A stretch of DNA of 17,832 nucleotides from a virus (IMGVR_UViG_2703718823_000018); one strand, 5' to 3'. Numbered from the stretch's first letter, positions 9,582 to 11,599 are shown. Numbers and translations are program-made. The notes: generated by a model not told the origin, from the letters alone.

Positions 9582-10247
9582 TCAAATAAAACCAGCTGCC
9601 TTCCGGCGTTCGTATTCCTGTTTCAGCCGTTCAATTGGCGTTGGCCCTTGCGGGTGTTTCGCCCCTTCCAGTTGTCGTCGCACTGGCGGAACACTCATCC
9701 CGTTACCAACATGCTTTGCCCATTTCGTCAGTTGCCGTTCCGCAAGTCGTTTTAACTCACCCTGCGTCATCTGGCGCTCAATCCCTCTGGTACGCATTTC
9801 GAGGCAGATGTGGTACAGCACAGGCTGAGGCCACGGATATTTGTCGCTTCCGTCATATCGCCAGGACTCATCACGCCAGCGGCGGTACTCCTCCATCACA
9901 GCATCCACCGTCAGGCCAAATGGATTGGCCCCGCTTTCTGAAATCAGCGCCACAAACTCAGCCAGGTCCGGAGGCCATGTTTCACCCGCCCGGCAGCGGT
10001 CCATGCACTGGCGGCAGACCTGTCGGATTTGCTGCTCAGTCATCGCGCCAATCTGTGCAATCCAGAGCTTCGAAGGTGCGGCCCCGTTCTTCTGGGTCCA
10101 GCGGTTCGAATAAACCTCCCCCATGAGTTCCCACAGCTTCCAGACCGTTTCCGTCGCTGATAAATCCGTTTTCACGTTCCCACTGCTCACGTGCTGCCCG
10201 AATTTCCTGAACTGCCCGTGATGCGGTGCCACCTGGTGCTGCTGCAT
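9582..10247 (-). CDS. Replication protein P-like (DnaB helicase loader)
   Basis: ATG at 10247 with GGGGG 6 nt upstream. C-terminal two thirds align by eye to lambda P (PDLAEFVALI..., YPWPQPVLYHICLEM, LKRLAERQLTKWAKHVGNG). The N-terminal 212 nt overlap the 3' end of the O-like gene in another frame, so the true start is uncertain (an alternative ATG at 10043 overlaps the O stop). Confidence 0.7.
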   Translation of the reverse strand: MQQHQVAPHHGQFRKFGQHVSSGNVKTDLSATETVWKLWELMGEVYSNRWTQKNGAAPSKLWIAQIGAMTEQQIRQVCRQCMDRCRAGETWPPDLAEFVALISESGANPFGLTVDAVMEEYRRWRDESWRYDGSDKYPWPQPVLYHICLEMRTRGIERQMTQGELKRLAERQLTKWAKHVGNGMSVPPVRRQLEGAKHPQGPTPIERLKQEYERRKAAGFI

Positions 10248-11076
10248 GGTTTACCCCCTTGCTGACTGGTTTAACCTGCGCCCTGACGTGATTTACGTGA
10301 CGGGCGAATTTCTGCTCCCACTGAATCTGCGTAAACACTTTCCCCTCCGCTGCCCAGTAGTCCCGGAAGGCGGCAAGTTCAGCAGGTGTAAATTCTGTCT
10401 CCGGCAAAGCCATCCCCCACAACGCAGCCCGTCGTCGAAAATCCCGTGACGGATACCAGCTATCGGTCATCGGAAATTTTCCGATGGGTTCGCTCAGGCC
10501 ATCCAGGAATACAAGGGGTGCTGCCTGTAACGACAAAACTTCCTGCTCACTGGTCGGAGCACTCTCGCGTGCGTTATGTGTGGGGTTTAGATCTTTGGGT
10601 TCCTTTGGGTTCCGTGATCCGTTTTTGGGTGTCTTTGATGGAAAATTTGGGTGTCTTTGGTTATTTTCCATGCAGCTAAGAGTTCCGTTTTTGGGTCTGT
10701 TTTGTGCTGAAACATAACCATTTTCGGTACTGTTTTTATTAACAGCACCAATTTTACCCACCTTTAAAGACTCCCGTTTTTGGGTGTATTCAGGCTCGGC
10801 AACACTTTCTTCTACACCGATAAGTCGGTACACCACAATTTGCTTTGTTCTGCCTTTTCTCTCACCGGTATCAACAATTAACCCAATCTCCATCAGGTGT
10901 CGTAAGCTGTCCTGCACAGTCTTTTTGTTTAGTTCCGTTACTTCTGCCAGTGCAGATACAGACGGGTATGCACACAAATCGGCACCGCACATATCAGCAA
11001 GCCAGGTCAATACAGACTTACTGGATGAACTGCCGGTTTTCACCTTTTTAGCCCATCGTAGTGCATCGATACTCAT
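10036..11076 (-). CDS. Replication initiator O-like protein (N-terminal winged-helix, repeat-containing linker, DnaT-like C-terminal region)
   Basis: ATG at 11076 (MSIDALRWAKK...) with AGGGG upstream. Linker with PKNG repeats is encoded by the iteron DNA. The ORF-track start at 11151 would overlap the upstream gene by about 100 nt. Confidence 0.75.
   Translation of the reverse strand: MSIDALRWAKKVKTGSSSSKSVLTWLADMCGADLCAYPSVSALAEVTELNKKTVQDSLRHLMEIGLIVDTGERKGRTKQIVVYRLIGVEESVAEPEYTQKRESLKVGKIGAVNKNSTENGYVSAQNRPKNGTLSCMENNQRHPNFPSKTPKNGSRNPKEPKDLNPTHNARESAPTSEQEVLSLQAAPLVFLDGLSEPIGKFPMTDSWYPSRDFRRRAALWGMALPETEFTPAELAAFRDYWAAEGKVFTQIQWEQKFARHVNHVRAQVKPVSKGVNHAAAPGGTASRAVQEIRAAREQWERENGFISDGNGLEAVGTHGGGLFEPLDPEERGRTFEALDCTDWRDD
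10595..10787. repeat. Replication-origin iterons inside the O gene (six TTTGGGT-core repeats plus an AT-rich segment)
   Basis: TTTGGGT at 10595, 10604, 10624, 10646, 10690 and 10779; three share the longer form YCCGTTTTTGGGT. AT-rich stretch at 10711-10760 lies between the repeats. Same layout as ori-lambda. Confidence 0.65.
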
Positions 11077-11599
11077 ACAAACCCCTGGCAGACATTTGTT
11101 TATCTGCAAAGTAATATTGATATTGCTGACGATACGCATGCTTGAAAGCAATAGCTTTTTCTATAAGCTCGTCAGTCTCACGTTCCACAACAGCTGGATC
11201 CGCAAAAAGCAGCCCGGACTCCACCACATCGCCATATTCTTTGTTTAATCCGGCGATCATGTACGTAATGCTTTTTCCATCACTGATCTCACGATACAAC
11301 CTGAAATCACTAATTCGGATAGCCTCCATAATTGCCGGAATCAGCGCCGTGAATTTTTTCCGCTTATCCCTGGTGTCGATAGCTTTCCAGCGTTCGAATA
11401 TCTTCACCCGGTTAACGCCCAGCGCCCGTTGATCAACCTCGCCATCATTAAACGTGACGCGTTGAACATCGATGTTCGGGCGTTCTTTCAGAGCCCAGAA
11501 TGCTTCCGTGATTAATATCGTCGCTTGCTCCTGTGTCATTCCTGGTCGACATACCCAGGCATCCAGAGCCTCACAAACCTGTTCAGGGGTGATTTTCAT
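11048..11599 (-). CDS. YdaT-like (CII-position) regulatory protein, 183 aa
   Basis: ATG at 11599, overlapping the dicC-like stop by 17 nt. Contains IDTRDKRKKF, resembling the YdaT block as I recall it; occupies the cII position after Cro. Confidence 0.5.
   Translation of the reverse strand: MKITPEQVCEALDAWVCRPGMTQEQATILITEAFWALKERPNIDVQRVTFNDGEVDQRALGVNRVKIFERWKAIDTRDKRKKFTALIPAIMEAIRISDFRLYREISDGKSITYMIAGLNKEYGDVVESGLLFADPAVVERETDELIEKAIAFKHAYRQQYQYYFADKQMSARGLYEYRCTTMG

Follow-up and report, generated by a model that had tools for sequence, protein, structure and literature searches.

The initiator and loader genes overlap out of frame

The window analysed here, a stretch of 17,832 nucleotides (nt) of viral DNA (IMGVR_UViG_2703718823_000018), carries on its minus strand a replication module in which an initiator gene, referred to below as O-like, is followed by a gene for a lambda-P-like helicase loader (positions 9,582 to 10,247 of the window). 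The two open reading frames (ORFs) have 212 nt in common, out of frame, with the last 70 codons of the initiator and the first 70 codons of the loader lying in the same DNA. The comparative evidence presented below makes it probable that this segment is genuinely dual-coding and old, and that the loader is made at full length from a Shine-Dalgarno (SD) sequence and ATG internal to the initiator gene. We refer to the initiator and loader reading frames as the O and P frames. The features involved are as follows, with coordinates counted along the window:

10036-10247, minus strand: overlap of the two genes, probably dual-coding; the P frame is the O frame +1, and P codon position 3 coincides with O codon position 1
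10036-11076, minus strand: initiator gene (O-like), 346 amino acids (aa) from ATG 11076, stop TGA at 10038-10036; coordinates identical to those of RefSeq WP_000020541.1
9582-10247, minus strand: lambda-P-like helicase loader gene, 221 aa from ATG 10247-10245, ending at 9582
10254-10260, minus strand: loader SD sequence AAGGGGG, within the initiator coding sequence, with a 6-nt spacer to ATG 10247

A first-pass annotation of this sequence had described the overlap, and its coordinates for it are all exact; the GGGGG SD that it placed ahead of the loader ATG is present within AAGGGGG. The P frame is closed by TAA 10253-10251, just ahead of this ATG, and contains two further ATGs downstream of it, codon 42 at 10124 and codon 69 at 10043. 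The initiator has an alternative upstream start at TTG 11151, where the mechanically defined ORF begins. The DNA is identical here to a prophage of Escherichia coli DA33137, and the region has matches in 1272 of 5426 complete E. coli genomes. An assembly artefact was considered and ruled out, as 1276 complete records from E. coli contain the region.

Conservation of the overlap and tests against chance

We examined the P frame and the ORF upstream of it in several phages and at 34 loci, each from a different GTDB species. At 30 of the 34 loci, and in Citrobacter phage Chris1 and Vibrio phage D62, the two genes overlap by 149-224 nt, mostly by 212 or 215 nt, and the relative frame is identical in every case. 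The P protein of D62 is only 27-30% identical, yet the overlap is present there too. Genera with the overlap are Escherichia, Citrobacter, Enterobacter, Klebsiella, Pluralibacter, Phytobacter, Kluyvera, Pectobacterium, Salmonella, Scandinavium, Buttiauxella, Erwinia, Samsonia, Limnobaculum, Rouxiella and Serratia. Five more Vibrio phage types have overlaps of 113-230 nt behind helix-turn-helix (HTH), O-like or DUF1376 initiators, bringing the Vibrio phage types to six in all (D62, vB_VpM-pA2SJ1, 199E37-1, D59, Vaitephage and 1.183.O). Overlap lengths among 123 fetched loci are mostly 212, 209 or 215 nt. The lineage counts below refer to 23 non-redundant enterobacterial lineages (less than 90% identical), all of which keep the overlap and its relative frame.

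Homologs with an O-frame stop near 10247, which the first-pass annotation had suggested looking for, were not found: no lineage has a stop before 10036, and the initiator therefore necessarily includes the 70-aa tail. The end point of the initiator varies in some lineages. In this analysis the long overlap occurs only with this subfamily of P; in lambda, phiV10 and other distant P relatives (L040-L043) the overlap is 19 nt or less and the initiators have different tails.

Across the 23 lineages, neither frame contains a single stop in 1574 overlap codons, against 57.5 expected for the P frame and 81.2 for the O frame from the stop frequencies of the same frames elsewhere (0.0365 per codon for P in initiator-only DNA and 0.0516 for O in loader-only DNA). 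We also resampled codons, keeping one protein, redrawing its synonymous codons and checking the other frame for stops. For this sequence alone, the probability of an open O frame given P is 0.04 and that of an open P frame given O is 0.32; one sequence is therefore only suggestive, and it is the comparative data that make the case. The corresponding values per lineage are 0.006-0.11 for O and 0.03-0.39 for P. Over the last 35 codons, the O frame would be open with a probability of 0.09-0.37 per lineage, giving a product of 1e-15 that overstates significance because the lineages share ancestry; over the first 35 codons, the P frame would be open with a probability of 0.11-0.94. Even with ten independent lineages, the result would be conclusive as to the O frame and suggestive as to the first part of the P frame.

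Proteins that join the initiator and the loader were also considered as natural fusions or products of programmed frameshifting (P0119, P0103, P0084 and phrog_15931, a single profile matching both O aa 161-345 and P aa 3-221), and this idea was rejected. The contig encoding P0119 (L130, 1248-2760), the sole one examined, is full of frame breaks, and the fused proteins thus look like artefacts, pseudogenes or sequencing errors. At a Leclercia locus (L037, 2474-2689), the N-terminus of P has been fused with the tail of O by a frameshift.

The two proteins

Pfam, PHROG and Foldseek all identify the loader as a genuine homolog of lambda P. Pfam Phage_lambda_P (PF06992) matches aa 55-188 with 59.3 bits (cutoff 26), phrog_109 ('P-like helicase loader') matches aa 19-221 at 2e-63, and homologs of 212-223 aa with 48-78% identity cover 96-100% of the 221-aa ORF. 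Residues W39, K53, N54, G55, P58 and W62 are invariant or nearly so in two alignments, A1, which includes lambda P and phiV10 P, and A2. The first-pass annotation had pointed to similarity with lambda P inside the overlap; its WIAQIG/WVLAF alignment holds, with W62 invariant in A1. The P proteins of phiV10, Tyrion and their relatives, which lack the long overlap, align from aa 18 of the loader, and their genes adjoin a DnaT-like gene with the usual 4-nt junction.

Models of the initiator tail and of the loader made with AlphaFold2 (AF2) are of moderate confidence (mean predicted local distance difference test score, pLDDT, 67-68). In the loader model (33 sequences, pLDDT 67.6), aa 1-29 are disordered (pLDDT < 50) and are followed by helices at 29-54, 60-67 and 71-86 and then onward. 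The top Foldseek matches of this model are lambda P chains (9oa1, DnaB complex; E 6e-5, 199-219 columns), and the search returned nothing unrelated below E 0.25. The predicted fold resembles lambda P in having a disordered N-terminal arm followed by helical domains. Lambda P consists of such an arm (domain I, residues 1-29/39), two compact helical domains, of which domain II spans ~30-119, and a C-terminal arm (PMC12661323). The N-terminus of the loader (MQQHQVAPHHGQFR...) is Gln/His-rich and predicted to be disordered, and owes its Gln richness to the fact that GCA GCA in the O frame reads CAG CAG in the P frame.

The initiator comprises an N-terminal HTH, a linker with direct repeats, a DnaT-like domain (aa 201-267) and the 70-aa tail encoded by the overlap. 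DnaT (6.5e-17) is the sole Pfam family above its cutoff, with HTH_36 (weak), RP-C and HVO_A0114 all below theirs, and the Pfam hit list of the initiator contains no lambda O family. The best PHROG is phrog_1032 'replication initiation protein' (1.7e-90); the 'replication initiation O-like' families match aa 1-178 only, and weakly (4e-12). The name O-like, taken from the first-pass annotation, is thus apt by position and PHROG family but not by Pfam membership of lambda O. In the AF2 model of aa 195-346, the DnaT domain is confident (pLDDT 80-92) and is followed by an isolated helix (aa 286-302, SRAVQEIRAAREQWERE, encoded at ~10171-10221; pLDDT ~55) and a disordered acidic end (aa 305-346, pLDDT < 50). 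The conserved tail helix, SRAVQEIRAAR (in general SRAVQxIRAAR), lies in the first part of the overlap, and a proximal motif, (I/V)(R/A)AAR..ER, recurs from E. coli to the Vibrio phages opposite a P N-terminus that is unalignable and Gln-rich. The protein ends in ...TFEALDCTDWRDD. A homolog search with aa 195-346 yielded, for the most part, partial sequences of close relatives and added no further genomic context.

The dominant frame switches within the overlap

A comparison of codon positions between O and P orthologs, as proposed in the first-pass annotation, shows that frame dominance switches in mid-overlap and divides it into two parts:

10167-10247, minus strand: O-dominated part, P codons 1 to ~27; the O tail helix lies opposite the disordered P N-terminus
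10036-10166, minus strand: P-dominated part, P codons ~28-70; P helices 29-54 and 60-67 lie opposite the O end

Among 52 close sequences, diversity over P codons 1 to ~27 peaks at P position 2, which is the O wobble position (0.115 vs 0.018 and 0.040), and from P codon ~28 on it peaks at P position 3 (0.109 vs 0.003 and 0.006), as in the rest of P. Alongside these diversities, we estimated OLGenie-style rates for the substitution classes NN, NS, SN and SS (nonsynonymous, N, or synonymous, S, in each of the two frames) against fictitious-frame controls, in close and wider sequence sets; together they replaced a weak test based on synonymous-codon identity. For the first half, O-frame dNN/dNS is 0.08-0.15 (close) and 0.40-0.42 (wider), compared with 0.75/1.31 in a loader-only DNA control. 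The rate at O-synonymous sites is halved there (0.14/0.35 vs 0.29/0.63 in initiator-only DNA), and P-frame dNN/dSN is 0.42/0.61 vs a control of 0.86/0.96. O is therefore strongly, and P weakly, constrained in this half. For the second half, P-frame dNN/dSN is 0.011/0.13, and P-synonymous sites run only ~20% below their rate in the remainder of P. Purifying selection is clear for O over the first ~27 codons and for P over the last ~43; it is weak for P in the first part and undetectable on O amino acids in the last. Order faces disorder in the AF2 models, with O helix 286-302 opposite P 1-29 and P helix 29-54 opposite O 305-346.

A distal O motif, LFEPLD.EERG..LD..DW, was tried as a sign of O-frame selection and rejected, as resampling of P-synonymous codons gives near-equal similarity. 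The motif NLFEPLDPEERG arises because EIYSNRWTQKNG in P forces it; W-T in P, for example, forces D in O.

The first-pass annotation had also raised the possibility that the O tail is an extension created by loss of an ancestral stop. This is plausible for the distal ~40 codons only, which carry no constraint of their own on amino acids; the proximal tail is under purifying selection. In such a case the overlap would be translated, but the last ~40 aa of the initiator would be functionless read-through, tolerated because it is disordered. We regard this as a serious possibility, though we would not call it probable. Consistent with it, second-half O-frame dNN/dNS equals the fictitious-frame control, and O-frame similarity (identity) in deep pairs is 30.5%, barely above the 26.1% expected from P conservation alone. 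The distal O variants (R/W, E/K, P/S and F/L) are exactly the changes that P wobble substitutions produce, the tail is predicted to be disordered and has a variable end point, and same-strand overlaps arise most commonly by 3'-elongation of the upstream gene (PMC3887535). Against this stands the open O frame in all 23 lineages, which P-synonymous changes could have closed at the resampled probabilities given above for the last 35 codons. Furthermore, a net acidic character and a similar end codon recur from E. coli to the Vibrio phages, and 35 codons pinned by P give low power to detect selection on amino acids.

The start of the loader gene

Dual coding of the whole segment depends on where the loader begins. 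Besides ATG 10247, two internal ATGs compete for this role:

10122-10124, minus strand: internal ATG, P codon 42; possible alternative start, and the annotators' choice in Salmonella, Citrobacter and Klebsiella (180-181 aa)
10041-10043, minus strand: internal ATG, P codon 69; RefSeq/PGAP (Prokaryotic Genome Annotation Pipeline) start, 153 aa, where ATGACTGA forms an 8-nt overlap with the O stop

A start at 10247 is the most likely. The aligned P start is ATG in all 23 lineages, each of which has a purine-rich, SD-like run before it (in most of them GGAGG, GAGG or GGGGG, in a few a weaker one), and in 22 of the 23 a P-frame stop lies 3-57 nt upstream of this first ATG. The O residues encoded across the P start vary (H/N/Y/D/S followed by A/V/G/E, read from xAT Gxx) while the ATG is invariant, as expected if the ATG, and not the initiator residue, is under selection.

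Annotation of the loader start is inconsistent among annotators and genera, and has no experimental basis. The E. coli loader in RefSeq starts at 10043, a late start that conceals the overlap, and RefSeq loaders of 180-181 aa, equivalent to a start at codon 42, are found in Salmonella, Citrobacter and Klebsiella. The records of phages PPompW and Chris1 give loaders of 140 and 136 aa, with later starts and no overlap. Loaders of 215-217 aa are annotated in Symbiopectobacterium and one Salmonella, and 221-aa E. coli versions exist in GenBank. These choices have practical consequences, as the 153-aa E. coli loader lacks 68 N-terminal residues and would yield a truncated domain II if cloned or modelled.

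Initiation at ATG 10124 would shorten the overlap to ~89 nt, still dual-coding, and would leave the upstream 41 P codons as an untranslated open frame. We consider this improbable. Codon 42 is ATG in 21 of the 23 lineages, the 180-181-aa RefSeq products in several genera begin there, and P aa 1-29 are predicted to be disordered and are weakly constrained. However, the codon sits in the middle of AF2 helix 29-54, where conservation of Met can be structural, and residue W39, upstream of the codon, never varies. Only ~2 nt separate its ATG from the end of the preceding GGAGG-like run, whereas the first ATG has an SD of its own. The 41 upstream codons are open in every lineage, with the frame closed just above the first ATG in 22 of them, and the O-synonymous rate is halved upstream. 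Codon 42 is CTG in two lineages, including Vibrio phage D62.

A loader starting at ATG 10043, coupled to the initiator stop through ATGACTGA and leaving the long P ORF fortuitous, was also raised in the first-pass annotation and is very improbable: it has in its favour the PGAP annotation in E. coli, the recurrence of an ATGAnTGA arrangement in many Enterobacteriaceae lineages and a direct phmmer alignment with lambda P that begins only at aa 72, but codon 69 is ATG in 17 of the 23 lineages and CTG, TTG, TGT, CTC or CTA in the other six (with Leu at residue 69 in many loader homologs), there is no SD upstream of 10043 in this sequence, the P frame above it shows conservation at the protein level and homology to P proteins without the overlap, and the start would remove helices 29-54 and 60-67, roughly half of what corresponds to domain II. 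Given the non-ATG codons and the cut domain, 10043 fails as the family's start; a short loader from this position could at most be a minor second isoform in the E. coli clade.

A model for the probable dual-coding segment

Translation of both frames, the first of the possibilities listed in the first-pass annotation, is the reading that we favour, on the strength of the conserved ATG and SD, the P homology upstream of 10043 and the open O frame. Ribosomes translating the initiator, with its HTH and DnaT-like domain, would read through to TGA 10036. Other ribosomes would start independently at the SD and ATG at 10260-10245, in the +1 frame, and produce a 221-aa lambda-P-type loader. The first ~27 shared codons would be constrained by the initiator, for its short helix, and would supply the loader with an N-terminal arm that is disordered; the last ~43 would be constrained by the loader, for its first two domain II helices, and would leave the initiator with an acidic, disordered end. 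The sequence of this distal end would be set by the loader frame, with its own reading frame nonetheless kept open.

Several observations weigh against this reading. We infer, from sequence comparison, which start is used in vivo. Over the first codons the P frame would often be open by chance (0.11-0.94 per lineage), its dNN/dSN of 0.61 has an interval of 0.39-0.98 that barely excludes 1, and the codon-42 ATG (21/23) is nearly as conserved as the first. In the second half, O-frame dNN/dNS at the control level means that there is no selection on O amino acids beyond that on P's, and the last ~35 codons of O may encode no functional peptide but an extension that is tolerated. Synonymous-codon identity at identical P residues shows only a small excess in the overlap (0.49 vs 0.42), and the shared ancestry of the lineages inflates any multiplied probability.

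What the shared segment does is a matter of speculation. Lambda O's C-terminal domain and lambda P are the parts that recognise each other or DnaB. By analogy, the tail helix and the loader N-arm may mediate contacts between initiator, loader and DnaB. The overlap marks a tail-plus-loader cassette that is combined with at least three unrelated initiator bodies, which makes the conserved tail helix (SRAVQxIRAAR) a candidate initiator-loader/DnaB adaptor. A further idea, which we put forward as rather unlikely, is that the overlap is a linkage device and not merely an accident of compaction, with tail and loader forming one cassette behind unrelated initiator bodies (DnaT-like, DUF1376 and O-like HTH). 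As the same DNA encodes the O arm and the loader arm, recombination in mosaic prophages could then never separate a cognate pair.

Relation to known systems

Of the known systems close to this one, the lambda O-P module likewise has an origin-binding initiator gene followed directly by the helicase-loader gene in an early rightward operon, and the candidate iterons within the initiator gene here may offer a further parallel. The overlap of lambda O and P is 4 nt, in keeping with the few bases stated in the first-pass annotation, compared with 212 nt here, and the initiator differs from lambda O in its HTH plus DnaT-like domain and its distinct tail. The phiV10/epsilon15-type module is similar in pairing a DnaT-domain initiator with a P-type loader, and the N-terminal region of phiV10 P aligns with aa 18-90 of the loader in the window. 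However, its junction is a 4-nt ATGA as annotated, and 19 nt or less from the first ATG, and its initiator has a different tail, HWNSPEAWEDFL, with no long overlap.

The operon in the window (repressor, Cro-like, YdaT-like, initiator, loader, DUF1627) is of Rac type and shares the layout of the E. coli K-12 Rac prophage, racR, ydaS, ydaT, initiator, loader and a ydaW-like DUF1627 gene. In K-12 Rac, however, the initiator position is held by YdaU, a DUF1376 protein, followed after a 6-nt gap by the DnaC-like ATPase YdaV (L124, 1620-3230), with neither the tail motif nor the overlap. The Rac-like prophages Rac-SA53 and L005 have DUF1376 or DnaT-like bodies together with the tail-plus-P cassette. 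Set beside K-12 Rac, they point to modular exchange at the initiator/loader point of the operon.

Same-strand overprinting with segregated constraint is a known class. The segregated model and the enrichment of disorder in viral overlapping genes have been reviewed (PMC8227390). The present case resembles overlaps of the HIV-1 tat/rev type in that one frame dominates each sub-segment and the other encodes disordered protein. Unlike these, it lies where the ends of two neighbouring old genes, which are functionally coupled, meet in a double-stranded DNA prophage, and the dominant frame switches once, in mid-overlap. Within this class, the overlap is a new, unusually old and widespread case, found in a well-studied module; no prior description of it was found in the literature searched, whose coverage is incomplete, so that absence is no proof. 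It is rare for two old bacterial or phage genes to have a conserved out-of-frame overlap of ~70 codons, and such overlaps are mostly written off as errors of annotation. With its occurrence in Enterobacterales prophages and Vibrio phages and its clean switch of frame, the overlap offers a compact natural model of order opposite disorder.

The virus-derived Vibrio helicase loaders VdhL1/2 adjoin lambda-O-like genes and are ~30% identical to some PF06992 proteins (PMC11087808), a report that makes no mention of an overlap. That description also suits the P-like ORFs of the Vibrio phages in this analysis, which carry the overlap; they may be viral relatives of VdhL1/2, and chromosomal vdhL loci might share the overlap.

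Repeats in the initiator gene and neighbouring overlaps

The linker-coding part of the initiator gene contains four direct repeats of approximately TCCGTTTTTGGGT (plus strand) at 10612-10790, which read ACCCAAAAACGGA on the gene strand and have spacings of 66, 33 and 56 nt. Three copies of TTTGGGTGTCTTTG accompany them, and the repeats encode recurring PKNG peptides. From their sequence, they look like candidate origin iterons inside the initiator gene, comparable to the lambda ori in O.

Upstream of the initiator, the YdaT-like gene (11599-11048) overlaps the start of the initiator gene by 29 nt (window positions 11048-11076), and the Cro-like gene (11810-11583) overlaps the start of the YdaT-like gene by 17 nt (11583-11599). 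Both are annotated by RefSeq in the identical prophage, and the two overlaps indicate that short-to-medium overlaps are the rule along this operon.

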